Virus record (IMG/VR): IMGVR_UViG_3300018019_000008
DNA from: an uncultured virus (IMG/VR IMGVR_UViG_3300018019_000008)
Taxonomy: Duplodnaviria; Heunggongvirae; Uroviricota; Caudoviricetes
DNA: 20,000 nt
Direction: 5' to 3' (one strand)
The position numbers and the translations under genes were made by a program. Below the pieces are notes generated by a model. That model worked only from the letters and a program-made list of their open reading frames with translations. It did no database searches and was not told where the DNA came from. Positions 2 to 19,500 of this stretch are shown here, piece after piece. How positions within the stretch are numbered: position 1 is the stretch's first letter; each line of letters starts with the position of its first letter.

Positions 2-3000
2 TGTGTAAACCGCGCTATAAACTGGTGGGTTATTTATGTCTGTGTTTGCTATAGTGAAAAGAACTTCTGGGAGTGCATTTCCATATTGGACACCGTTAAA
101 TTCTACTTGTATTGTAGCTTTGTAATGAGTGTTAGATAAAATACCGCACATAAATTTAGCTTTACCGTTAGTAATCATAGTCGATACTGGAACATATAAC
201 GCCTCATTGTATCCCCCTTCACCATAAGGAGCACCAGTATAGTAATCTGACGCTTGAGCAGAAAAACAAGCATATACATAGAATTCTCCTTTTGCTACAC
301 AAACTATTCTAAAGAAGAACCCTGTTCCGTATCCAAGATAAGCACTTTCGCCGTTAGCTGTATTTACTCCTGAAGATGGATTAGACATCATTCCAACATC
401 AATATAATCTCCTATATTCCATATAGTACCACTACTGCCTGACTTGCTATATGGCGGATTAGCTGGTTCATAAACTTCAAAGGTTGTAGTAAACTTTGGC
501 TCTTGTGTTAATGGAATATCAGTTGCTTGTCCCTGTAAATTGTTTCCACCAGCATCGAAACATTTGTTACTATATCTTGCTTCTTGCCATACTATTCCTA
601 TGTTAGTTTTATCTCCACCCCAGATAGCGCAATTAGAAGTATCGGCTTTCCATCCAGCGTCATTACTTGGTGAATAACCACTTGGACCGTTTGTTTGTGG
701 GAACCATTGTGGGTCACTTGAACCTTGACCTGTAGTTACTTCCTCGTTTTTCGCCGTTTTACTAAAGAGAGTTGATAATTTGTCTGGATTAACTTTATTC
801 GATTGTGCTCCTTCAGCCGCCCAATCAGTTGCGATAACACCCATTATTCCCAATGTCTTCAATTGCTTATAAACATCTTTCCAAACATTGCTGATGTCGA
901 GATAAGGTGCCTGACAAGTTAATGTTATGTTTTCACCATTTTCATCAACTTTTGCTTCGGTATTCCAAATTCTATATGCGCTTGTTAGGTTGTTTGGAAT
1001 TGCATTAGGTACTAACCCAGACAGAACATCATTAAGTACAACGTCATCTCCAACATCGTAAATATTGGGGTTTGAAGAGTTAAAACCATGTTCATATGTG
1101 TCTCTTCCTATTTTACATGTTATTGCATTCTTTCTTTTCGGGCTTGCATCAATCTTCAATCTAACTTTAGCATATCTATCAGCGATTCTGCCACCAGCAA
1201 CTTGTTTCTGGGTGAAAATATCTTCGAAGAATCCCTGAATTTCATCCATAGCTTCTGAATCATTTGACCATATTGAGCTAGAATCTTCTTGATTCTTTCC
1301 TTCGCCACTTCCTATTACTTGAACTCTTTGATAAGTATCTCGTGAAGTTCGCTGGTATTTAACTGATTGCATATTTGTTCCTGTTACAAACGAGACAGAA
1401 GTGGACTTGTCGCTTCCTACTCTTGGACCCATATGGAAGTCTCCGATACAATTAAGAGGGTCATGAACTGATGGAGATTCTATCCACCATTCAAATGGCA
1501 AATAATCGTCATTTACCATCGTACCTATATCGAAAAGAATGTCCATTAATCTGTTTTTTGGAATGTTGGTTGGACCAATCATGAAAAGGTCACCTTGCGT
1601 ATATCCCGAAGGATTTCCCGTTTGCTCGCTGTATGATATGAGATTTAAGTCAATATCAGCATCAGCTAAATAGATATATGGACCCCCGCTATAAACAGGT
1701 CCAATGTATGCGTAACAAATCCCGTTACCAACTCCATCTCCGCCGTCAGGAGTATATAAAAGAATTACATCATTTTGTTTAGGAGCATAAACCCCGTTAG
1801 TTGCATCGACACGCCATTCATAAACGTAAAAAGGACTTTCATATGTACCTATGTCAACATAATTGTTCTGTCCATCATCAATAAGTATTCCTATAAAATT
1901 TTGTGGAGCAAAAGAATTAGCATAAACTTGCAATCCTAAATCTGTATTAACAGTTGGACTATATGTTTGACTATAATCAATGTTAAAGTTTCCTTCTATG
2001 AAACTAGCGTATGCAGAAGAAACATACATATGGTCGATTGGATTAGTAAATGTAGTTTCTGTAGGATAAGGAGAAGTAGGAATCCCACTACCATTAAACG
2101 GAATTATATTTCCAGTAGATATTGGAGTAATCGAATTATCTCCCTCAATAATTAACAATCCATATGTTCCTTGAATAAAGGAGACAGTAATAGTTTGAGA
2201 ATAAGTGCCTGAAAGATTACTATATACCCCAACAATACCATTACTGCTAATACCCCAGAAATATACAATCCAAGTTCCAGTATAAGAATTAAGGTCTATT
2301 TCAAACCATTCCTGAGTTAAACTTCCGTTTGCAAAGATAACTTTAACTAAATCGGTTGTATTTGTATCTTGCAAAGTTGAAGTATCTAGAATTAAACTAA
2401 AATTATTATAGAATTTTACGTTACCTTGCGAAGTTGTTAGTATTGTTTCTCCCGCATTTACCTGAGCATAAGTAGCGGTATATTCCTCTGCCGTACCTGT
2501 TTCTGTGAATTCTATTTTATATTCCTTTGTTTTTTGTACTGCTGAAGGGTCTGTTACGTTATTTGGTAGTAATGCTTCATCCCATCTTACCCAATACTTT
2601 ACGGGGTCCGTTCTATAGATGTAGGTTTGAGTAATTTCCCATCCATGATTATAATTATCGCTTTTAGATTCGCTGATTGATGTTCCCAATCCCGCCGCTG
2701 GGTCAGCATAGATTTTTACATTTGTCATATTTCGTGGGTGCCAGCTATGTAAAATATCTGGATAAATATTTTGAAGGTGACACATAGCTTGGTTAGCAGT
2801 AGTGTAAGAATGAACAAGCGGATTTTGTAGAGTAATTGTGTTTCCATTTACCGATTCTATAACATTGATTTCACAATTTGTTGGATTGCCATTCGGGTCG
2901 AAAGTATCCATGATTCCTATATTCATACTTGGTTGGAAGAAGGCATTTGGAGCACTCGAAAGAACTATTGTTGATGAGCCTTTAGATGCATTTGAAGCCA

Positions 3001-6000
3001 AAGTTATAGGTTGATATGTATTAACTAAAGTTATTTCTGGTCCAAGTCCAGCAGATATAACTCCTAAAGTGTATGTTTCTGATTGAGTATTTATATCCAT
3101 TGCATCGAGAAAAGTAGCGTAAGTAGAACCACTTCCATATACTTGTAAATTCGGGTCATACTCAGCTTCAAAATCAACTGTATCTATAGTTCCAGCATTA
3201 TTGAGGGAAGTAAATTGAGCGAGTAAAACTGGTGTGCCGCTGGTAATATTGTACAGTTGTACATATCCAGAACCAGCAGAAAGAGAAGCTATTAACCTAA
3301 TTTGAATCCATGTACCATTAATAATAGGGAAATCAGTCCAACTTGTACCCCATTCTCCATTTAGAACAAGATTACCATTTTCCATAAGGAAAAATCTCAT
3401 GTATTGTTGATTGGAATTTGCATATAAACTGGTTTCAACTCCAACAACGGCGGCGCAAGATGTCATATTTGGATTTGGACGAGCGACAGATGAACTATTA
3501 TAAAGTTTCAATAGATTAATCCAACCATAAGATAAAGTTCCATTGAAGTTAAGTAAAACTTGCCCGATTTGGAATTGAGCATATGCTGGATTACCTGATG
3601 TTTCAATGCTTCCAACAATAGAAAACTTTACTTGTGCGCTCATCCAATCATCGTAAGATGTCAAATATGAAGATATGTCAGTTGGTGCAAACAAGTTTGC
3701 CCAAGATGTGCTTGAAAATTGATTTCCAGAATCAGCAACTTGTACCCAACTACCTGAGTGCGCTACCCATAAGAATGCTTGAACCCGTATATTTTGTATA
3801 GCACCGTTTCCGCCTATGTTATTTTGGATTCTTGCTGATACGTTAAAGTGACAAGGACTTGTAGGTACACATGCAGTACCATTCGTACTGAAAGCATTAG
3901 CTAAGTTATCAAATGTGCAATAGTCAGCAGAAGCCCATGTAGGAACTACAGTACCTAAAACATAAATATGGTTATCATCTTCATCACTACTTGTTCTAAC
4001 ATATGGTGCCGTACCAGCCGTAAGCCAATGGTTACTACCAGCCTGATTCCAAGTAGCCGCCATTACATTGCCATTTTTGCTCTGATTATGCGGTGGCGGA
4101 GCACGAACCCAAGCATCTACTTGAACAAAAGATGTGGGATTAATATCTTCCTCAAAATACCATTTTTGACCGTTAGCAGTACATTGTATTTGTTGGCATC
4201 CAGTTCCTTGTATTTGTTGTGTAGTGTTTGTTGAGTCTTGAGCGTTTCCACCAAAAGTGCTCCAAGTATTGGCTGTACTTGATTGAGCAGTAAAATCATC
4301 AATCCATACTCCATAACCATCAAAAGATGCTGTGTCGATGAAGATATTTACAACTTGTTTCGTATTGTTTGTCCAAGCATTTGCTTTAGCATCCTCAAAA
4401 ATCCAACCAGTTTGAGTAGAAACTATAACAATGGGAGATAATGTATTGTCGCTATAGACTAAATAATACTGGAATCGTTTACCTTGAACTTGACCTCTAT
4501 GCCAGAACCCTAAACTTGTACAATTATTATACACTACAGACGGATTAAAGTTTGCTGATTGTGTAGCTGTACATTCTTCAGGAACATTAAAACTAGATTC
4601 TGTGCATGGCATATATAAGTCCCATATTCCGCTATGTGCATTAGTGCCATCATTATAAATTTCGGCATTAGAAAGAAGCCATCCCGTACTATCGCCAGTT
4701 TCAAAGCCGCCGTTAATAAATTGTTGTCCGCCACTTGTAAAAGCGTCCATATTATTGGAATAAATTTCTGCTAATCCCTCAAAAGCATAAGATATTGCCA
4801 TATAACGATATGTAAATGTATCCCCAGCATTAGTAATTGGACAACTCCAAATTAATTCACTTTGTTTCATAGTTCCAGCATTATAGATATAATATGTAAG
4901 GGTTGTACCACTTCTTATAACCTGAACCCAATATGTAGTACCTATAGAAAGATTACTTATTCCATTAACAAACGTTCCAGCGAAATATGTTTCTGTACCA
5001 TAACTACTGCCTTTATATCTAACTTCTGGGTATAATACCCCGCCTATGTTAATAATATCGAAAGTAGTGAAAGCACCAGCTTCTTGCTCTATTGTGTAAA
5101 AGTTTGCTATTTGATTAGCCAAACACCACGGTATAAATGCTGGCGCATTATGTGGAGATGTTGATGTAGAACAAGGTTGAGAAGTTCCTATATTAAAGGC
5201 AAAACTTTCATTAATAGTTCCGTTTATAGGACCAGTTTCAGTTGCGTTTATTCCTTGTCTGTAGAAATATGCAATTTTACTTGAATTATCGCTTTGATAA
5301 GAATAAAACGTAAGTTGGTCTTGTCCAGCATCTAAAGCAAGATAAGGTGGGTTTGGTGTTGATGCCTCATAGAGAGTATAGCCATTAAAAAGTTCTAGTC
5401 CACCCGAAGTTGTAATATGATAAGCGGCTGGAAATGAATTAATATGCTCTCTGCTTTCAAGATAAACCCCCATACATGGGATTTCATTAAATTGTATATT
5501 AACCCAATCTGGATTATGACCAGAAGTTTTAGTAGGATTTGGGTAAATAGTTCCGCCACTTGCATATCCAACTTGGAGATAACAGTAACGAATGTAAGTA
5601 GAAAGAAGACCTAATTCTACGAATTTTATTCTCGCGTTATTTACATCGCCAACATTCGTAAGAACATGTGAAAGGTCAATAGTATATATTCTCCAAGCTA
5701 ATTTATTTATGTCATAAATACTTCCAAACGTGAGACTTGCAAGCGCATTACTTCTTCCAATCATCTCTCCCATATCAGACCAATCTCCATTAGAAGCAGT
5801 ATATACAAGAACTTCGCAATCAGATTGAATGAATGGATTTAGAGTAAAGTCCCCCGCTGACCATATTACAAGAGTACAACTATTAACCGCTGTAGCATTA
5901 TCTGGGGAAGCATATGGGGGCATAGGCTTACCATTTGGATTTTCCCAAAGAGGATTAACTGAGAAAGTAATGGAAGCATTAACGTTAATATTAGATTGAA

Positions 6001-6769
6001 TATAACTTGTTGGTCTTGTTCCAAGAAGGATACTGTCATTTGCATAAGGAGCGGTGCCTATTTCATCCCATCCGCTATTTTGCATAACTGCTCCAACTAC
6101 TCCTTCATAACCGTGATATTCATCTGTAGGTTGACTTATTTCAAAAGGAGTCCCAGAATTTGACCAAATCATATCTCTTTTTCTTAAAACAGTAGTGTTT
6201 ATATCGCCATATCCTTCTTGATTATCTGGACCTCGACCACCTTCTAAAGCTATGAAATTGGAAATGTCAATTCCCCATCCTTCTTTATTATAAGGATACA
6301 TTGATTCAGCAGTAGTAGAAGTATCGCTTGGAACTTGTGGTAAATCTGAACGCGGAGTCCAGAGTAAAAACTTCATCAACTCAACTGGATTAATATTTCC
6401 GAAAAATCCTTTGGTTTCTGGAAGTGGATTATTAAAGTTTTCTACATACTTTCGCCAGAGCAAAAGTGTAAGGTCTCGTCCACCAAGATTAAGGAATCGT
6501 CCATCTTCATCCCAATCAATTTCTATATCTTCAACGAACCCTACCCATTCTTGATTTCCATCACGCACAAATTGAATTAGGTCATTGAAAGTAACGTTAG
6601 GGTCATACTCAATTGTAGCTGTAAATTCTGGGGGAGAATCCATTCTAACTTTCTTTTTAACATCAAATGTTGTCCACTTACGCGGGAGTCCCCAATTAGG
6701 ACTTGGAGTCCCAACAATATTAGCTTGATGAGCTATATAAACTGTCCATGTTTTTCCAGATTCAGGCAT
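2..6769 (-). CDS. Giant tail-tip / baseplate-hub (Tal-like) protein with inserted adhesin or carbohydrate-binding domains, >=2256 aa, 3' end outside the window
   Basis: ATG at 6769 gives MPESGKTWTVYIAHQ...FTATIEYDPNVTFNDLIQFVRDGNQEWVGFVEDIEIDWDEDGRFLNLGGRDLTLLLWRK, a hub-like N-terminus. The same frame is coding at the window edge (...LPEVLFTIANTDINNPPVYSAVYT). Absence from the ORF track fits a frame with no stop in the window. A hub-like second half (YQRVQVIGSGEG...YDVGDDVVLND) lies at about 880-1560, and a CBM-like motif (FINGGFETGDSTGW) at about 4700. It lies downstream of the tape-measure-like gene. Confidence 0.8.
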   Translation of the reverse strand, partial: MPESGKTWTVYIAHQANIVGTPSPNWGLPRKWTTFDVKKKVRMDSPPEFTATIEYDPNVTFNDLIQFVRDGNQEWVGFVEDIEIDWDEDGRFLNLGGRDLTLLLWRKYVENFNNPLPETKGFFGNINPVELMKFLLWTPRSDLPQVPSDTSTTAESMYPYNKEGWGIDISNFIALEGGRGPDNQEGYGDINTTVLRKRDMIWSNSGTPFEISQPTDEYHGYEGVVGAVMQNSGWDEIGTAPYANDSILLGTRPTSYIQSNINVNASITFSVNPLWENPNGKPMPPYASPDNATAVNSCTLVIWSAGDFTLNPFIQSDCEVLVYTASNGDWSDMGEMIGRSNALASLTFGSIYDINKLAWRIYTIDLSHVLTNVGDVNNARIKFVELGLLSTYIRYCYLQVGYASGGTIYPNPTKTSGHNPDWVNIQFNEIPCMGVYLESREHINSFPAAYHITTSGGLELFNGYTLYEASTPNPPYLALDAGQDQLTFYSYQSDNSSKIAYFYRQGINATETGPINGTINESFAFNIGTSQPCSTSTSPHNAPAFIPWCLANQIANFYTIEQEAGAFTTFDIINIGGVLYPEVRYKGSSYGTETYFAGTFVNGISNLSIGTTYWVQVIRSGTTLTYYIYNAGTMKQSELIWSCPITNAGDTFTYRYMAISYAFEGLAEIYSNNMDAFTSGGQQFINGGFETGDSTGWLLSNAEIYNDGTNAHSGIWDLYMPCTESSFNVPEECTATQSANFNPSVVYNNCTSLGFWHRGQVQGKRFQYYLVYSDNTLSPIVIVSTQTGWIFEDAKANAWTNNTKQVVNIFIDTASFDGYGVWIDDFTAQSSTANTWSTFGGNAQDSTNTTQQIQGTGCQQIQCTANGQKWYFEEDINPTSFVQVDAWVRAPPPHNQSKNGNVMAATWNQAGSNHWLTAGTAPYVRTSSDEDDNHIYVLGTVVPTWASADYCTFDNLANAFSTNGTACVPTSPCHFNVSARIQNNIGGNGAIQNIRVQAFLWVAHSGSWVQVADSGNQFSSTSWANLFAPTDISSYLTSYDDWMSAQVKFSIVGSIETSGNPAYAQFQIGQVLLNFNGTLSYGWINLLKLYNSSSVARPNPNMTSCAAVVGVETSLYANSNQQYMRFFLMENGNLVLNGEWGTSWTDFPIINGTWIQIRLIASLSAGSGYVQLYNITSGTPVLLAQFTSLNNAGTIDTVDFEAEYDPNLQVYGSGSTYATFLDAMDINTQSETYTLGVISAGLGPEITLVNTYQPITLASNASKGSSTIVLSSAPNAFFQPSMNIGIMDTFDPNGNPTNCEINVIESVNGNTITLQNPLVHSYTTANQAMCHLQNIYPDILHSWHPRNMTNVKIYADPAAGLGTSISESKSDNYNHGWEITQTYIYRTDPVKYWVRWDEALLPNNVTDPSAVQKTKEYKIEFTETGTAEEYTATYAQVNAGETILTTSQGNVKFYNNFSLILDTSTLQDTNTTDLVKVIFANGSLTQEWFEIDLNSYTGTWIVYFWGISSNGIVGVYSNLSGTYSQTITVSFIQGTYGLLIIEGDNSITPISTGNIIPFNGSGIPTSPYPTETTFTNPIDHMYVSSAYASFIEGNFNIDYSQTYSPTVNTDLGLQVYANSFAPQNFIGILIDDGQNNYVDIGTYESPFYVYEWRVDATNGVYAPKQNDVILLYTPDGGDGVGNGICYAYIGPVYSGGPYIYLADADIDLNLISYSEQTGNPSGYTQGDLFMIGPTNIPKNRLMDILFDIGTMVNDDYLPFEWWIESPSVHDPLNCIGDFHMGPRVGSDKSTSVSFVTGTNMQSVKYQRTSRDTYQRVQVIGSGEGKNQEDSSSIWSNDSEAMDEIQGFFEDIFTQKQVAGGRIADRYAKVRLKIDASPKRKNAITCKIGRDTYEHGFNSSNPNIYDVGDDVVLNDVLSGLVPNAIPNNLTSAYRIWNTEAKVDENGENITLTCQAPYLDISNVWKDVYKQLKTLGIMGVIATDWAAEGAQSNKVNPDKLSTLFSKTAKNEEVTTGQGSSDPQWFPQTNGPSGYSPSNDAGWKADTSNCAIWGGDKTNIGIVWQEARYSNKCFDAGGNNLQGQATDIPLTQEPKFTTTFEVYEPANPPYSKSGSSGTIWNIGDYIDVGMMSNPSSGVNTANGESAYLGYGTGFFFRIVCVAKGEFYVYACFSAQASDYYTGAPYGEGGYNEALYVPVSTMITNGKAKFMCGILSNTHYKATIQVEFNGVQYGNALPEVLFTIANTDINNPPVYSAVYT

Positions 6770-6780
6770 TTTCTATTCTC

Positions 6781-7164
6781 CTACCTATATTTCTTTCTAT
6801 ATTCTTTATTTTCATATCGTTTTATCCAATTGCAGTTAGCACAAAGAAGTTGATAATCCTTACTACCAAGTTTAATTTGTTCAAGAATATAATAAAAATA
6901 AGTTGCACAACCATTCTTAAAATGGGTTCTTTCTTTATTTCCGCCGCCGTTAATATGGTCAATCTGTAATGCTCTCCAATCTGTCATTCCATCAGGAACA
7001 GCACAATTAAGATTAGAACACTTACTACCGAGTAGTTCAATAATTTTCATTCTTATTTCATGAGTTCTTTCTCGCTGTTGTTTTGCTCGTTCTTCTCTAT
7101 GATTTTTATTATATCTTTGCATATTGTTTAATCCATCATTTATTTTTCTACTCATATTTATCAA
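6781..7164 (-). CDS. HNH-like endonuclease, free-standing
   Basis: CSNLNC...LQIDHINGGG...YQLLCANCNWIKR: Zn-binding HNH signature with a basic N-terminus. Close paralog of 12514..12879. Confidence 0.8.
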   Translation of the reverse strand: MINMSRKINDGLNNMQRYNKNHREERAKQQRERTHEIRMKIIELLGSKCSNLNCAVPDGMTDWRALQIDHINGGGNKERTHFKNGCATYFYYILEQIKLGSKDYQLLCANCNWIKRYENKEYRKKYR

Positions 7165-9121: not shown

Positions 9122-9138
9122 GTATATAAGCCTTATGG
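9122..9138 (-). promoter_or_regulatory. BRE+TATA promoter of the tail operon
   Basis: CCATAAGGCTTATATAC on the minus strand. Confidence 0.7.
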
Positions 9139-9171: not shown

Positions 9172-9546
9172 TTAAGGACGAACTTTTTTTCTTTTTAAAA
9201 ATCGATGATGCAATAACCCGTGGCATTTCGCACATAAAGTTATGGTTTTCAAAGGTGAATAACTAATCTCATGACATAATAAATTTTTGGTTGAACCACA
9301 AACTTCACAATTAGGCTTCAATTTCTTAAAGCCATTTGCATCTTGTTGTTCATTAGCCAATATCTGTAATTTTTCTGATATATCTTTTGGAGTTTGAGAA
9401 ATTATTTCAAGTTTTAATTTTGCATATTGTTCTTTTGAGAAGAAGTGTTTTCGGCATTTTTCTGAGCAAAATTGTTGTATTCCAGCCCTATAATTAGGAT
9501 TTTGAATAAATTCCTTTTTACATTCTGGATTTTGACATATTAGCAC
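9172..9546 (-). CDS. Zn-finger / HNH-like protein
   Basis: N-terminal CQNPEC...FCSEKC; C-terminal CEVC...LLCHEISY...LCAKCHGLLH. A TATA box lies upstream at about 9580-9595. Confidence 0.65.
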   Translation of the reverse strand: MLICQNPECKKEFIQNPNYRAGIQQFCSEKCRKHFFSKEQYAKLKLEIISQTPKDISEKLQILANEQQDANGFKKLKPNCEVCGSTKNLLCHEISYSPLKTITLCAKCHGLLHHRFLKRKKVRP

Positions 9547-10826: not shown

Positions 10827-10914
10827 GTATTTTCACCTTACAATCATAACAAAGATTATCTTCCCAATCGGTAACAGTTCCGCCGCAACCTAAGCATATA
10901 TGAGCTTCTACCAC
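10810..10914 (-). CDS. Small Zn-finger protein (34 aa)
   Basis: GTG start gives MVEAHICLGCGGTVTDWEDNLCYDCKVKIHENRT*. Two CxxC motifs; it fills the gap between the terminase and Cas4-like genes with short overlaps. Confidence 0.5.
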   Translation of the reverse strand: MVEAHICLGCGGTVTDWEDNLCYDCKVKIHENRT

Positions 10915-12521
10915 AGATTCGCACCGCTTTCTTTAACTTGAGAGAATGGACTACCTTCGCCATTGTCAACTTCATCATAATAGCTGATAGCATAAATCAT
11001 TGCATCCGCCGAGTGGTCATCTTGCTTGCGGATTTTACCAGTTTCATCATAGGTTAAGTTTCTAAGGCTTCGCATCAAATCCTCGTTATCTTCATGTCTT
11101 GGAATCCGTAGTTTATGACGCTCGACATATTTCTTGAGAGTAGCAACATATTTATACTTCTCATTTCCGCCTTCCGCGCCCGTAAATAATTCATGAACAC
11201 CAGCTTCAACCCGTTCGGCGAGCCAGCCATTAAGTGCCCATTCTCGCGGGTCAGGACGAATAACTTCAACTTGCCATCTGGTAGCAAGTTCAACCGCTAA
11301 GTCTAACTTTTCTTGGTCTGTTAAACCAATGGTCTCATGGGCTTCCAATACGAAAACCCAATCTCTAAATTGACCGAGAACAACATAAGCAGTAGGGCTT
11401 CCTCTGCCCCAATCTATACCTAATACTCGGTTATGAACGTATTCGTTTAATGCCGCCATTGTGTCTGTTGGCAAATCGTCCATTTTCATTCCTTCCTGAA
11501 GTAAAACTCTTTGTAGAAGTTCAAGGCATTTTCCAGCTTCGTATGGACGGCATTCATCACACGCGGCTTTGCAGAATGCAACACCTAAATCTGCTGGGTT
11601 AAAGACCAGACCAGATGATGTGTTAATACCACCGAGAGCTTCAACTAACCATTCAGAGTTAGAACACTTCTTTCTAAGAATCTCAATATTTAAGTCTGGC
11701 ATCCACGGAACATTTGACTTCCAATGTTTCGGGTTTGTGTCTTCGTAAATCTTATATGGGTCTGTTTCATCAGTAACGCCAGCGTCATTAACATGTCTGG
11801 CGATTGCCCATTGATAACGTTTATAGCCTAACTTTTCTGCATCATTCCAAGTTATCAAGAAATCTCCGTGAATAAAGTGCGCTGTTGAACTTTGAATAAT
11901 GTGTATATCTGGGCTTGTAGAAACTTCCCAAATTGCTGATTTAATAAACTTTCCGCCACCAGCTTCTTCACCAGCCGCTTGTTCATCTATAATTAAGTCA
12001 TAAGTGTGTGGACCTCGAACTGAAGTTCCTGAGCAAGCATGAAATTTAGCTTCTCCCTCAGAGAACGTAGTTGTTGTTTTTTGAATGTTCTTTAAAGTGT
12101 AACCTTCTAAGACCGTGTTATTCCGAATCCAGCCTTGAATATAAGACGCAATTTTGTCTGACTGCTCTTGAGAACCACCCATACATGAAATGCTGTACAT
12201 GTCGTGAGTAAATATTCGCCACATAATATAGATGGCTAAAACGAAAGTCTTACCTGAGCCACGCCCAGCCGAAATGATTACAAGTCTAACGCCATGAAAT
12301 GCTAAGTCTTCTAAAAATTCTTTCTGTCCATCTGAAAGAACAAGAGGACCGCCTGTATTCGGGTCTGTTCTTAAAATTTGATAAGCGAATTTTACTGGTC
12401 CCTCAACCTTCCAAAATTCACGCCATTTTCTATAATCTTCAAGCTCTATGATGTCTTTCTTCTTGAATTTCTGAAGTAACTCAGTTTCCTTATCGAACAT
12501 TCCCTTCGGGAACTTAGCCAC
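10908..12521 (-). CDS. terL: Terminase large subunit
   Basis: LSDGQ Q-motif, Walker A SAGRGSGKT, Walker B LIIDE, motif III SSTA, and RNase H-like nuclease motifs LGIDWG and DDHSADAMIYA. Confidence 0.93.
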   Translation of the reverse strand: MAKFPKGMFDKETELLQKFKKKDIIELEDYRKWREFWKVEGPVKFAYQILRTDPNTGGPLVLSDGQKEFLEDLAFHGVRLVIISAGRGSGKTFVLAIYIMWRIFTHDMYSISCMGGSQEQSDKIASYIQGWIRNNTVLEGYTLKNIQKTTTTFSEGEAKFHACSGTSVRGPHTYDLIIDEQAAGEEAGGGKFIKSAIWEVSTSPDIHIIQSSTAHFIHGDFLITWNDAEKLGYKRYQWAIARHVNDAGVTDETDPYKIYEDTNPKHWKSNVPWMPDLNIEILRKKCSNSEWLVEALGGINTSSGLVFNPADLGVAFCKAACDECRPYEAGKCLELLQRVLLQEGMKMDDLPTDTMAALNEYVHNRVLGIDWGRGSPTAYVVLGQFRDWVFVLEAHETIGLTDQEKLDLAVELATRWQVEVIRPDPREWALNGWLAERVEAGVHELFTGAEGGNEKYKYVATLKKYVERHKLRIPRHEDNEDLMRSLRNLTYDETGKIRKQDDHSADAMIYAISYYDEVDNGEGSPFSQVKESGANLW

Positions 12522-12879
12522 ACTCCTTATTTATGTATCGTTTTATCCAGTTACAATTTGAACAAAGTAATTGATAATCCTTTGAACCAACTTTAATTTT
12601 TCTTATAACCATTCCATAAAAACTATATCTGTTTTTATGTTCTCTTAATTCTCTTACTCCACCGCCATTTACGTGGTCAATTTGAAGACATCGTGTATCG
12701 TTTAAAAAATCGCCGTGATTCAAGTTATATGGATTAGAACATTTGCCACCAAGTAATTGAATTATTATTTGTCGTCTTTTTCGAATCATTTTTTTGTTAC
12801 GTTCAGAATTTCCTCTAAGACGTTCTTCACGATGCCTCAAATAGTAATCGTGATTGATAGTAGTTTTTTCTTTCGACAT
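12514..12879 (-). CDS. HNH-like endonuclease adjacent to the terminase
   Basis: LQIDHVNGGG...YQLLCSNCNWIKR; overlaps the terL start; paralog of 6781..7164. Confidence 0.8.
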   Translation of the reverse strand: MSKEKTTINHDYYLRHREERLRGNSERNKKMIRKRRQIIIQLLGGKCSNPYNLNHGDFLNDTRCLQIDHVNGGGVRELREHKNRYSFYGMVIRKIKVGSKDYQLLCSNCNWIKRYINKECG

Positions 12880-13386: not shown

Positions 13387-13403
13387 CTATTTAAATCTTA
13401 TGG
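13387..13403 (-). promoter_or_regulatory. BRE+TATA promoter of the terminase operon
   Basis: CCATAAGATTTAAATAG, identical to 9617-9633. Confidence 0.8.
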
Positions 13404-14312: not shown

Positions 14313-14645
14313 TCAATAGTTTGTCTCCTGTCTTTTATAGTTCTCGGCGAGTTTAGTCTTGTAGGCTTCGAATAATTCTTCAACAGTTACATTATCTTCA
14401 AGCATGAGAAGCATAAAGAAATGAAAAACATCAACCATTTCTCCTACACGTTTTTCCCTTGTTGGAAGCGGTTTCTTAGACCACCATTTGAATGTTTTAC
14501 CGTTAGCGGCTTCTTGTTCTGCCATTAGTTCGACAGCTTCAACCATCATGGCTACGCTCACGAGAAACTTGGTGAAATCAAATCGGTCCTTAAATTTTTC
14601 TTGAAATTCATTTTGCAATCTCAACATTTCTTCAAATTTATCCAT
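14313..14645 (-). CDS. Dimeric (all-alpha) dUTPase / MazG-like NTP pyrophosphatase
   Basis: MLRLQNEFQ, VEAVEL, FKWWSKK, EMVDVFHF and YKTKLAENYKRQETNY match the dUTPase_2 pattern. Confidence 0.85.
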   Translation of the reverse strand: MDKFEEMLRLQNEFQEKFKDRFDFTKFLVSVAMMVEAVELMAEQEAANGKTFKWWSKKPLPTREKRVGEMVDVFHFFMLLMLEDNVTVEELFEAYKTKLAENYKRQETNY

Positions 14646-14675
14646 TTAATCGCCTACAAAACAATGTTTAAAGAG

Positions 14676-14692
14676 CTATATAAACGTTACGG
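14676..14692 (-). promoter_or_regulatory. BRE+TATA promoter of the dUTPase operon
   Basis: CCGTAACGTTTATATAG. Confidence 0.75.
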
Positions 14693-14965
14693 TGTCACGG
14701 AAACCTATCAGCACCCTACTTTCAAGCAAAGGACATAGGCTTATTTTGCTCGCCACGAGTCATTTCTGTAGCCTATTTCTCTGTGGCACCATTCGATGCT
14801 TCATCTGGGATTCAGACCATGACTATGAATATCACGGCTGGCGTTTCAGAGGGCAAAGCTGGCTAGGTACTGCCCTTAAAACTCGTCAGTTAGGCTTTCC
14901 CTAGTAGCGTATGCCCTCTCACTACCAACCAATGACTACGATGTTTCTCAGCCAGATATTTCCTA

Positions 14966-15027
14966 CGGCGGGGGCTGGATTCGAACCCGCTTTCCACCTG
15001 AGTCCTTGCCACATGAACGACCCTACC
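14966..15027 (-). ncRNA. tRNA-like element lacking the anticodon arm
   Basis: Acceptor GGTAGGG/CCCCGCC, D-arm GTTC-ATGTGGCAA-GGAC, T-arm GCGGG-TTCGAAT-CCAGC. Only 11 nt lie between the D and T arms; no CCA. Confidence 0.6.
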
Positions 15028-15054
15028 CTCGGAATCTGGCTTTGACTATGATTG

Positions 15055-15109
15055 ATGGGTTGAGGGGGGTCCCGCTCCATTGGTAATGGGTTGAGGCACC
15101 CCCGCTCCA
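15055..15109. repeat. Imperfect tandem direct repeat ATGGGTTGAGG-N4/5-CCCGCTCCA (2 copies)
   Basis: Copies at 15055-15079 and 15086-15109. Confidence 0.85.
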
Positions 15110-15456
15110 CCGTTCCTATGGAGTTGCTAACTGTGTATTCCACGCGGTTCATGCCTTAGATGTTCGGCTTGTCTGTGGTACACGGTGCGCCTTATAGGTT
15201 TTCCAGACCATCACGGCAACTCCCACCTGTTTTCTTTAATAGTTTACCAGCATCCTTAACCGAATACGAGAGTTAGTTCACGGTTATTCCCTAACCCACA
15301 TCGCTTCGGGGAACGCTGGCGAGTATGATAGACGCAAACAAGGTAGGCTCGCTACTCCACGAGGGAGTGTACATCATTGCTTTCAACTCTGAATACACTA
15401 TAAGGCGTATCCTTCGAGTTGACCCGCTTGCTAAGTATAGTATAATATAAGTTCTC

Positions 15457-15473
15457 CTATATAAACTTTATGG
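15457..15473 (-). promoter_or_regulatory. BRE+TATA promoter pointing into the non-coding region
   Basis: CCATAAAGTTTATATAG with no ORF downstream. Confidence 0.75.
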
Positions 15474-15914
15474 CACAATTTCCATATACAATTCAGGATG
15501 ATGAACAGGGCAAAATTGGACTTTACTTTGTCCTTTAGCTGTGTTACAATTAGAACACATTATTTGAAACCCATCTGGGTAATTATTATTCTTAAGCCAT
15601 TGATAAAAATTGCCTTTTCCTATTTCTTTTCTTTGTTTTGTTCCGCCGCCTTCTATATGGTCTATAGTTAAAAATCTAACTTCTAATTCACCACAACAAA
15701 CACATTCTCCACCATAATGTTTAAGAACTTCTATCTTATCTTTTATTCTTCTTAATCTTTGTTTTCTTATTTTAGAAATATAAGCACATTTTTCTGAACA
15801 ATATGTAAGTTTAGAAACTTGATTAATTTCATTTTCTACCTTGCTAAGTATTACTCCCTTTACTTGAACTGTTTCAAATTGCTTTTTACAAATTGGGCAT
15901 ATCTTTATTTTCAT
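15468..15914 (-). CDS. HNH-like endonuclease with N-terminal Zn finger
   Basis: CPIC...YCSEKC; CVCC...LTIDHIEGGG...FQIMCSNCN. The start is placed at ATG 15914 (MKIKICPIC) because the promoter at 15971-15987 is very close to the track's 15950 start. Confidence 0.8.
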   Translation of the reverse strand: MKIKICPICKKQFETVQVKGVILSKVENEINQVSKLTYCSEKCAYISKIRKQRLRRIKDKIEVLKHYGGECVCCGELEVRFLTIDHIEGGGTKQRKEIGKGNFYQWLKNNNYPDGFQIMCSNCNTAKGQSKVQFCPVHHPELYMEIVP

Positions 15915-15970
15915 AATCTCACTTTGCTTCTTTAAATGAAGCATTCGCATTAGAATAAATAGGGGAACTA

Positions 15971-15987
15971 ATATTTAAATCTTATGG
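15971..15987 (-). promoter_or_regulatory. BRE+TATA promoter
   Basis: CCATAAGATTTAAATAT. Confidence 0.75.
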
Positions 15988-16384: not shown

Positions 16385-16401
16385 CTATATAAACTTTACG
16401 G
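16385..16401 (-). promoter_or_regulatory. BRE+TATA promoter
   Basis: CCGTAAAGTTTATATAG. Confidence 0.75.
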
Positions 16402-16792: not shown

Positions 16793-16849
16793 CTACCTTT
16801 TCCAATCCAATCCAATGTACCGAAGTACAATAAAGAAAAAGAGAAACTA

Positions 16850-16866
16850 GTATTTAAATGTTATGG
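16850..16866 (-). promoter_or_regulatory. BRE+TATA promoter
   Basis: CCATAACATTTAAATAC. Confidence 0.75.
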
Positions 16867-16904
16867 AACGGGAAGACCCCTGACCTTTAATGTTGAGGGT
16901 CATC

Positions 16905-17111
16905 TCAACGGGTTGTGGTCTTCACCGCTCCATTACAGTAGTAACAGTTATCTGTTGGTTCGAGATGTTCATTTCCTCTATGGTGTTGGTGATGCCGCCC
17001 TTTGTTAGGTTTTCGGCTCATTGGTCCATAGTTATATCGGAAGAATATTCTTCCGCATCGTTGACATTTTACTTTGATGTTTGCTCCCATATGACGCACC
17101 GTCCTACCCAT
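16905..17111 (-). CDS. Small Zn-ribbon protein
   Basis: CQRC...CYYC with a His-rich linker; co-oriented with its neighbours. Confidence 0.55.
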   Translation of the reverse strand: MGRTVRHMGANIKVKCQRCGRIFFRYNYGPMSRKPNKGRHHQHHRGNEHLEPTDNCYYCNGAVKTTTR

Positions 17112-17726: not shown

Positions 17727-17743
17727 CTATTTAAACTTTATGG
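17727..17743 (-). promoter_or_regulatory. BRE+TATA promoter
   Basis: CCATAAAGTTTAAATAG. Confidence 0.75.
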
Positions 17744-17815: not shown

Positions 17816-17832
17816 CCATAACATTTATATAG
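17816..17832 (+). promoter_or_regulatory. BRE+TATA promoter of the RNA/tRNA cluster
   Basis: CCATAACATTTATATAG. Confidence 0.75.
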
Positions 17833-18967: not shown

Positions 18968-19393
18968 ATGGATGAATTTAATAAAGACCAATTACGATAT
19001 AAAGACCCAGAGAAACGAAAACAATATCAAAAAGATTACGCTAAAAACAATAAAAAGAACTACTATAAATTACATCCTGAATATAAAAAAATAGCGGCAG
19101 ATAAGAAAAAAGCGTTGTTAAGAAAAAAGAAACGCAAAATTGTAGAATTGCTCGGTGGTAGATGCTCAAATCCTAACTGTGCTTGTCCAGATGGATATTC
19201 AAGATGTATAGCGGCATTAGAACTTCATCATCCAGACGAAACAACTAAAAATGAAAACTTCAATAACTATCTTGCTATGTCTATGGAAAGAATAATAAAA
19301 GAAGTATTGCCTATAGTAGTATTGTTTTGCTCAAATTGCCATCAAGAACATCATAATCCAGAACTATGCCGCTTTAGCATAACAGAAATGTAA
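18968..19393 (+). CDS. HNH-like endonuclease inserted in the tRNA-Thr-like gene
   Basis: LLGGRCSNPNC...ALELHHPD...LFCSNCHQEHH; own promoter at 18919-18935 and GGTGA RBS. Confidence 0.8.
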   Translation: MDEFNKDQLRYKDPEKRKQYQKDYAKNNKKNYYKLHPEYKKIAADKKKALLRKKKRKIVELLGGRCSNPNCACPDGYSRCIAALELHHPDETTKNENFNNYLAMSMERIIKEVLPIVVLFCSNCHQEHHNPELCRFSITEM

Positions 19394-19438
19394 GGGTTCT
19401 GTAAACCTTTGATGGGTGTGCAACTCACCCAAGCGGCT
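19393..19438 (+). tRNA. 3' part A of the tRNA-Thr(UGU)-like gene
   Basis: AGGGT-TC-TGT-AA-ACCTT, TGAT, GGGTG-TGCAACT-CACCC, AAGCGGC-T. Begins within the HNH stop codon; no CCA. Confidence 0.65.
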
Positions 19439-19500
19439 CTTTAAACCGCAAACTTTATTAACAACCAACGAGATAGTAATAAAACAAGAAGTGAAAAACT

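Follow-up and report, generated by a model that had tools for sequence, protein, structure and literature searches.

A candidate structured non-coding RNA with a conserved core in a putative tailed virus of small-genome archaea

The packaging motor of phi29 contains a structural RNA, the pRNA, which the virus itself encodes, and HEARO, the omega-RNA of IscB, is a structured RNA adjoining a gene with an HNH domain. Structured non-coding RNAs (ncRNAs) encoded by archaeal viruses are almost unknown, and the viruses of small-genome archaea are known from metagenomes only. From phages and bacteria, GOLLD and ROOL have been described as large ornate RNAs (10.1101/2024.12.08.627333; PMC5737381). Here we analyse a region (14700-15432) in a stretch of 20,000 nucleotides of the uncultured virus IMGVR_UViG_3300018019_000008 (the whole stretch is called the window in the following), which is probably a virus-encoded minus-strand ncRNA gene of a tailed archaeal virus, built from a conserved, folded core of about 205 nt and a lineage-specific extension. 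A search for homologues found copies of the core in a complete 112-kb IMG/VR virus (G303) and in a viral contig binned in an archaeal metagenome-assembled genome (MAG; contig G001:C78). The case is built on conservation, on the non-coding character of the region, on promoter boxes, and on helices that are kept through substitutions. The best-supported conserved unit is the core of about 145-205 nt, and by its sequence this core seems to be a real, new, and rare viral ncRNA.

At the sequence level, the likeness to GOLLD and ROOL consists in a long, GC-rich, and promoter-driven region free of open reading frames (ORFs) in the genome of a tailed virus, placed where a relative of this virus (locus L010) has a tRNA array, and with a tRNA gene 4 kb away. 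The differences are that the RNA matches neither covariance model even at E<=10, that the host appears to be archaeal, and that only about 205 nt are conserved while the rest is lineage-specific. The original prediction, which was made without database searches, had not recognised the sequence as GOLLD, ROOL, or HEARO. No Rfam 15 family (GOLLD, ROOL, HEARO, OLE, raiA, RNase P, SRP, tmRNA, and group I and II introns included) matched at gathering score anywhere in the window. When stretches of 1.1 kb, 371 nt, and 446 nt were searched at E<=10, nothing appeared but chance-level matches to SNORD19B, the ToxT thermometer, and Acido-1, far below gathering. The copy in G001:C78 has no Rfam match, and the G303 record (L094) has no non-tRNA Rfam match. 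HEARO and the IscB omega-RNA differ further from the locus, because the HNH protein of the window (148-160 residues) is phage-type and has no RuvC part, its 160-residue form matches PHROG HNH families only, and its gene lies upstream and not downstream of the RNA and is not adjacent to it in G303 and G001:C78. Like the phi29 pRNA, the candidate RNA is virus-encoded and structured, has its own promoter, and in the window is close to the terminase genes. However, there is no sequence or model similarity to the pRNA, and the G303 copy is located 10 kb from the gene of the terminase large subunit (TerL). We found no title or abstract describing such an RNA, and the contig number of G303 did not appear in the searchable supplement files of the 2023 catalogue of viral structured RNAs (PMC10690425).

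The region had been described originally as GC-richer and without a credible ORF, and both statements hold. Its GC content is about 0.50 in a genome of about 0.36 (about 36% for the 20-kb window overall), with values between 0.445 and 0.525 across 14601-15400 compared to 0.28-0.39 in the flanks, and this enrichment is common to the copies in the window and in G303. The largest ORF beginning at a start codon has at most 76 codons, and each of the six frames contains 10 to 21 stop codons of all three kinds. None of the 12 open frames of at least 35 residues matches Pfam or PHROGs (E<=0.1), and a blastx search of the region against the 6142 ORFs of related loci gave a single match of 18 residues (E 0.006). 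Given the stop codons in all six frames, the missing Pfam and PHROG matches, a conserved 16-mer whose reading frame in the window is not that in G303, and indels between the homologues that are not all multiples of three, the region is best regarded as non-coding.

A 17-nt motif at 15457-15473 on the minus strand, with the TATA box TTTATATA at 15458-15465, points into the ORF-free region. It had been called a consensus promoter. The motif is indeed real and recurrent, with 12 matches in the window at up to three mismatches (1.17 expected, and 0 of 200 shuffles reached 12), but it is an archaeal-type TTTAWATA box and not the sigma-70 consensus; a sigma-70 scan found nothing on the minus strand at 15457-15473. 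The sites are intergenic (for example 9122-9138, 13387-13403, 14676-14692, 15457-15473, 15971-15987, 16385-16401, 17727-17743, and 17816-17832), and their consensus in transcription sense is aCCRTAAnnTTTAWATAg, which is the form of the archaeal B recognition element (BRE)/TATA promoter. Most genes of the window are preceded by a TTTAWATA box, usually some 20-50 nt before the first ATG, so that the window supplies a clean BRE/TATA consensus useful for annotating this virus group. In all three copies of the core (window, G303, and G001:C78) a TTTAWATA- or TATA-like box is found 20-23 nt before the closing helix P1. In two of the three copies oligo-T follows, namely T6 after the core in G001:C78 and T5/T6 after the G303 RNA. 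At the sequence level the locus thus has the signals of an independent archaeal transcription unit. There is no internal promoter box within 14693-15231. On the plus strand, the 5' end of the RNA gene is overlapped by a near-consensus sigma-70-like site (TTGACC-16-TATAAT, 11/12, at 15419-15446), which probably has no relevance if the host is archaeal.

The core covers 15232-15436 on the minus strand, with a likely 5' end at about 15434-15436, and was delimited by BLAST blocks to G303, by alignments, and by two covariance models, R1 and R2. G303 has direct terminal repeats and a TerL that is 56% identical to that of the window. It shows two collinear BLAST blocks to the region (E 1.5e-4 and 9.5e-4) in an ORF-free stretch of GC 0.43-0.49, which is found on the other strand 10 kb from TerL. 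The blocks identical between the window and G303 are GCAARCGGGnCAnCUCGAAGG, CCUUGUUUG, UCGCCAGCGUUCCCCG, and UCGGUUAAGGAYGYUGGUAAAnUAUUA, with indels of 3, 18, and 25 nt between them. R1 was trained on these two sequences and therefore scores both highly by construction (251 bits in the window, 220 bits in G303). It also finds G001:C78:819-934 with 24.9 bits (E 8.8e-4 per genome). G001:C78 encodes a PolB-like ORF that is 49% identical to that of G303, and on sequence the contig is placed in the same virus group. Its RNA gene is minimal and stands alone: a TATA box, about 145 nt, and then T6. The second model, R2, gives 85.5 bits at 15232-15331. A second R1 match, in G010, was rejected because it lies inside an ORF of 691 residues.

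The closing helix of the core, P1, is formed by the 5' strand GCAAGCGGGU (15422-15431, minus) and the 3' strand ACCUUGUUUGC (15334-15344, minus), in which CCUUG is invariant in three copies. In the RNAalifold consensus of the window and G303, P1 has ten pairs, one of which is changed on both sides (U-A to A-U) and another on one side (G-U to A-U). The minimum free energy (MFE) folds show the hairpin P2 (15383-15422, minus), which varies in length and sequence and whose loop holds a 10-nt arm (15398-15407); at this place G303 has a longer and different hairpin. The P4 domain (15246-15320, minus) comprises P4a (15311-15320 with 15246-15255, 10 bp), an asymmetric internal loop (UUAA at 15256-15259 opposite a single C), P4b (15305-15309 with 15260-15264, 5 bp), and a terminal hairpin of 40, 15, and 19 nt in the three copies. 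Variable-length hairpins between conserved helices are typical of structured RNAs. P4a, the single C opposite UUAA or AUAA, and P4b are kept in all three copies. When the three sequences are taken together, 95.6% of the 45 cells of P4 are paired, compared to 18-49% if the partners are slid by one to three columns. Three of the 15 P4 pairs are changed on both sides, one of them being A-U, G-C, and C-G in the three sequences, and both Y positions of the third conserved block still pair with the invariant 5' strand. P4 is followed by the conserved tail (A)AAnUAUUA (15237-15245, minus), where the gene ends in T6 in G001:C78 and where the window has no T-run.

Folding of the whole region is strand-asymmetric. 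The minus strand of 14650-15460 (811 nt) folds with -268.9 kcal/mol (z -3.73, none of 20 shuffles as stable), while the plus strand reaches -238.3 kcal/mol (z -0.87, 5 of 20 shuffles). The only strongly stable 150-nt window in the region is 14776-14925 (z -3.55 on the minus and -1.30 on the plus strand). The original prediction had named hairpins at about 14813-14890, and a strong hairpin is indeed present but spans 14831-14936 instead; the stable stretch 14776-14925 corresponds to it. It had also listed four complementary blocks. These are exact Watson-Crick complements at their coordinates, yet they exceed chance by a modest margin only and lack conservation. Perfect inverted repeats of at least 7 bp number 18 compared to 10.6 +/- 2.9 in 60 dinucleotide shuffles, and those of at least 8 bp number 6 compared to 2.5 +/- 1.3, so that the excess over chance is modest; a 10-bp repeat is present in 6 of the 60 shuffles. 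The 10-bp pairing among these blocks joins the variable P2 loop (15398-15407) to the 3' extension, and the G303 RNA has no equivalent long-range pairing of at least 9 bp. The proposed pseudoknots and interlocking alternative folds are for this reason unsupported.

Several observations weigh against a conserved, structured ncRNA gene. The first group concerns the fold. The P4 shuffle controls reach the observed values in 20 to 61 of 500 trials, and with only three sequences the covariation in the P4 pairs and in the single P1 pair is weak. P1 is missing from some MFE folds of the isolated cores. Five compensatory P1 pairs are obtained for G001:C78 in an alignment made by hand, which MAFFT does not reproduce, and the MFE fold of G001:C78 prefers a nearer alternative partner, so that P1 in this copy is a tentative assignment. 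Furthermore, thermodynamic support is mixed, as 150-nt windows inside the region have a mean z of -0.61 compared to -0.22 outside, which does not make the region an outlier. The second group concerns the 3' end. From the core to the mazG promoter (14676-14692) the window has no run of five or more T. Because a terminator before mazG is missing, the 3' end of the RNA is undefined and its tail could be mere read-through.

The third group concerns rarity. The 53 TerL-linked metagenome loci (375 kb) contain no match to the region by blastn or nhmmer, and R1 finds nothing further in 48 sources (583 kb) that cover 33 of the 53 loci and include the complete G304 genome, although a search of TerL-linked loci would miss any RNA gene at a distance above 7 kb from TerL, such as that of G303. 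Four scans of IMG/VR with conserved-block patterns give G303 as the only relative; the 16-mer was found at 84 loci, and among the 80 examined only the G303 record is related, the others belonging either to a coding gene that has no relation to the core or to a set of tRNA-array loci of phages. The RNA family is rare. In addition, a blastn search of the region against 50,697 phage records gave no match, and R1 gave no other credible match in 118 genomes of the archaeal MAG's order. Over 151 genomes of the phylum and the 118 order genomes, R2 gave only its training sequence and two matches with broken helices. There is thus no credible host copy in the host-type genomes searched with R1 and R2. 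BLAST searches against 301 and 118 small archaeal genomes only produced tRNA 3'-end matches and chance matches in coding genes, and the spurious ORF of the G303 copy, used as protein query, led to no further candidates.

A side result of the IMG/VR scans is that 20 loci are identical over 20 nt to the most conserved block of the core as it stands in G303 (L088, L092, L095, L097, L102, L109, L113, L119, L121, L122, L124, L130, L132, L139, L145, L150, L157, L164, L165, and L167). In all four loci checked with Rfam (L092, L119, L139, and L157) the identical stretch is part of a phage tRNA array; in L139 its orientation is opposite to that of the tRNAs, and it falls within an uncalled gap of about 220 nt between two tRNA genes. 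This identity may be due to chance or to an unrecognised tRNA-like gene.

How could such an RNA work? Its transcription, its ends, the unity of core and extension as one functional RNA, and any partner that binds it are inferences. The RNA would be read from its own BRE/TATA-type promoter (15458-15473), starting near 15434. The core would fold into the closing helix P1, the variable hairpin P2, and the 3' stem P4a/P4b with its invariant loop (C opposite UUAA or AUAA), and would end in the UAAAnUAUUA tail. In its minimal form, in G001:C78, it would be a complete small RNA of about 145 nt, with oligo-T as its terminator. No terminator follows the core in the other two copies, where transcription would run into the extension of about 520 nt (window) or 290 nt (G303). 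The core would most likely act in trans, as a ribonucleoprotein scaffold whose invariant loop is the binding site of a protein of the host or the virus. Lineage-specific structured modules would be added by the extension, in the window the 105-nt hairpin and a mimic of a tRNA 3' end. A role as cis-acting leader is unlikely because no same-strand gene follows downstream in two of the three copies. If this model is true, the conserved promoter-driven core with modular 3' extensions represents a new RNA family, and the invariant loop, as a candidate protein-binding site, would offer a handle on virus-host biology in an uncultured system.

Other roles and origins were considered. An antisense role was rejected because only chance matches of 11-14 nt were found within the window or G303, and CRISPR-repeat mimicry because the candidate host matches are coding. 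An origin from RNase P, SRP, or rRNA had been suggested by motif resemblance seen by eye and was rejected since no model matches. ARAGORN, in default or tmRNA mode, finds no tRNA or tmRNA in the region. A split or intron-containing tRNA was rejected as well, because under relaxed settings (80%, introns) ARAGORN only gives badly paired acceptor stems.

The lineage-specific 3' extension of the window (14693-15231, minus, about 520 nt) is GC-rich, like the about 290 nt that precede T5/T6 in G303, but the two show no similarity (local alignment score 21 compared to 23.9 +/- 3.1 for shuffles). It contains a tandem motif, UGGAGCGG-N5/6-CCUCAAC, which occurs twice at a distance of about 30 nt (15090-15109 and 15059-15079, minus). 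Five matches to this motif in IMG/VR were rejected as homologues because they have no similarity beyond the motif and by a rough estimate are about the chance number. Further downstream is a domain closed by the 7-bp block (14951-15040, with 15031-15040 pairing with 14951-14963; minus; fold z -1.93). Inside this domain, the minus strand of 14966-14990 resembles the T arm and acceptor strand of a tRNA, with 22-25-nt matches (92-96% identical) to tRNA genes of small archaeal genomes at their 3' ends. The T arm has a UUCGAAU loop, and the 3' strand of the acceptor is present together with the G that follows it, but the piece differs from a tRNA mimic in that a cloverleaf and a matching 5' acceptor strand are missing, the T stem has a G-A mismatch, and it belongs to the non-conserved extension. 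This tRNA-like 24-mer has no match in IMG/VR. The last feature is the long imperfect hairpin of 105 nt (14831-14936, minus), whose 117-nt fold has a z of -4.83, with none of 200 shuffles as stable.

A different, though somewhat unlikely, possibility is worth considering, namely that only the core of about 205 nt is functional and that the 3' 520 nt or so represent read-through over decaying acquired DNA, such as tRNA remnants and foreign GC-rich sequence. The extension is without homologue in the 53 related loci and in the 583 kb of R1 sources, its 150-nt windows are not unusually stable apart from one hairpin, the minimal gene in G001:C78 ends right after the core, the tRNA-like piece has the defects described above, and L010 has an array of 12 tRNAs at the same place upstream of mazG. 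Decay does not easily explain, however, why a GC content of 0.50 is held over the whole stretch in a genome of 0.36, why G303 independently has a GC-rich extension before its terminator, and why the fold of the whole region is strand-asymmetric and inverted repeats are in excess. Moreover, the region has no similarity to the tRNA array of L010, for which reason a decayed tRNA array was rejected as its origin, and the tRNA-like piece has the opposite orientation to that array.

At the other extreme, the complete transcript of about 740 nt would be functional, as the large ornate RNA of a virus that infects small-genome, DPANN-like archaea and as a counterpart of GOLLD and ROOL made of the core and fast-evolving modules, including a tRNA 3'-end mimic that engages tRNA-handling enzymes or defences of the host. 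By analogy this is conceivable but doubtful. The original prediction of a new viral ncRNA thus survives for the 5' 205 nt or so, which are conserved in two further contigs and have no Rfam match, while a single ornate RNA of 730 nt is unproven, because the 3' 520 nt have no detectable homologue.

The remaining explanations are improbable. A DNA-level element, either a replication origin or a packaging (pac/cos) region with repeated protein-binding sites, would fit the position 2.2 kb upstream of TerL, the tandem 20-nt motif at a spacing of about 30 nt, and a ATGACTATGA-like sequence repeated three times at intervals of about 110 nt. These repeats, however, sit in the non-conserved part, and compensatory and G-U-preserving changes in P1 and P4, the strand asymmetry of folding, the promoter box before and the terminator after the core in the other copies, and the G303 homologue on the other strand and far from TerL make this explanation very improbable. 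Even less credible is a decayed protein-coding gene from a GC-richer donor. The region is a GC-rich insertion relative to related viruses, gave the weak blastx match, and shares a motif with the 3' end of a zinc-ribbon ORF, but against it stand the 10-21 stops per frame, the 12 frames unmatched in Pfam and PHROGs, the conserved blocks read in different frames, and the constant spacing between the TATA box and the onset of the conserved part, which has no start codon there. Finally, a self-splicing intron or mobile RNA element travelling with the HNH homing endonuclease can be practically dismissed, because the HNH gene directly upstream, the absence of the region at this place in relatives, and the split genes of relatives (TerL in three pieces in L046) are outweighed by the lack of any group I or II intron model match even at E<=10, by the lack of exons on either side (the upstream ORF is a complete HNH gene, and mazG, which is preceded by a promoter of its own, aligns to its Pfam profile from position 2 onwards), and by the two other copies, neither of which adjoins an HNH gene.

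The ncRNA reading includes an archaeal host. The TerL of the window (10908-12521, minus) has no relative among the 50,697 phage records (tblastn) and none in a single-protein search of IMG/VR. In metagenome protein collections 90 relatives were found, and 53 loci in JGI metagenome contigs. In the species-genome collection, the relatives belong to an 'uncultured archaeon' MAG (55% and 52% identity), whose phylum has genomes of 0.3-1.3 Mb, and a distant relative (24% identity) is found in a Methanomassiliicoccales MAG. The TerL relatives in archaeal MAGs, the small genomes of the MAG's phylum, and the BRE/TATA-type motif together suggest that the window derives from a tailed virus of small-genome archaea, for which, the host being archaeal and not bacterial, 'phage' would be the wrong word. 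The window also encodes a neck protein and a Cas4-like nuclease.

Directly upstream of the RNA is the HNH endonuclease gene (15468-15950, likely start 15914, minus), which matches PHROG HNH families with a best E of 5.4e-12 and which had been proposed as the partner of the RNA. At least four HNH genes are present in the window, where five ORFs are HNH-like (6781-7164, 9172-9546, 12514-12879, 15468-15950, and 18968-19393), and G303 has at least 10 tblastn matches to them, the HNH genes being scattered across these genomes, apparently as free-standing homing endonucleases between genes. Because HNH genes are found everywhere and none adjoins the RNA in G303 or G001:C78, the HNH gene is not a conserved partner, and from the available copies it does not seem to be a partner of the RNA at all. 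The common neighbour in G303 and G001:C78 is a convergent ORF (L080:666-1097 and L192:942-1433, 33% identity, E 7.6e-19), relatives of which are named Holliday junction resolvase by JGI; the window has no homologue of it.

Downstream of the RNA, the gene of a MazG/dUTPase_2-like NTP pyrophosphohydrolase (14313-14645, minus) has its own promoter box at 14677-14684 and matches PF08761 (E 1.5e-12, profile positions 2-84) and PHROG 173 (E 4.9e-18). The order mazG - o14020 - p13514 - o12885 - TerL is syntenic in relatives. A mazG homologue is found in 8 of the 53 relative loci, and the content upstream of it varies. In L010, whose TerL is 80% identical, this neighbourhood corresponds to that of the RNA in the window and is occupied by the 12 tRNA genes (57-3034; ten found by ARAGORN and two more by Rfam), which are on the strand opposite to TerL.

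Some further observations were made on the window and its relatives. The small zinc-ribbon ORF with a CxxC...CxxC pattern (16905-17111, minus) overlaps a third, looser UGGAGCGG...CCUCAAC copy at 16892-16932 (three matches in total, with none expected), and the stretch 16801-16950, which also overlaps its 3' end, has strongly negative folding z values on both strands (-4.46 plus, -3.08 minus). ARAGORN predicts a tRNA-Thr (UGU) at 19368-19439, and the Rfam tRNA model stays below gathering score throughout the window. In L046, the TerL match is split into three parts (1252-1491, 2422-2877, and 3886-4794) separated by gaps of about 1 kb, which suggests inteins or introns in its terminase gene, and one of the TerL relatives in UniRef, a protein with PF14528, bears the name 'putative homing endonuclease'. 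The window also contains an open-ended ORF of more than 2256 residues (2-6769), which matches neither Pfam nor PHROG. Its N-terminal part is kept in relatives (31-56%), immediately following the neck and tail-completion genes.

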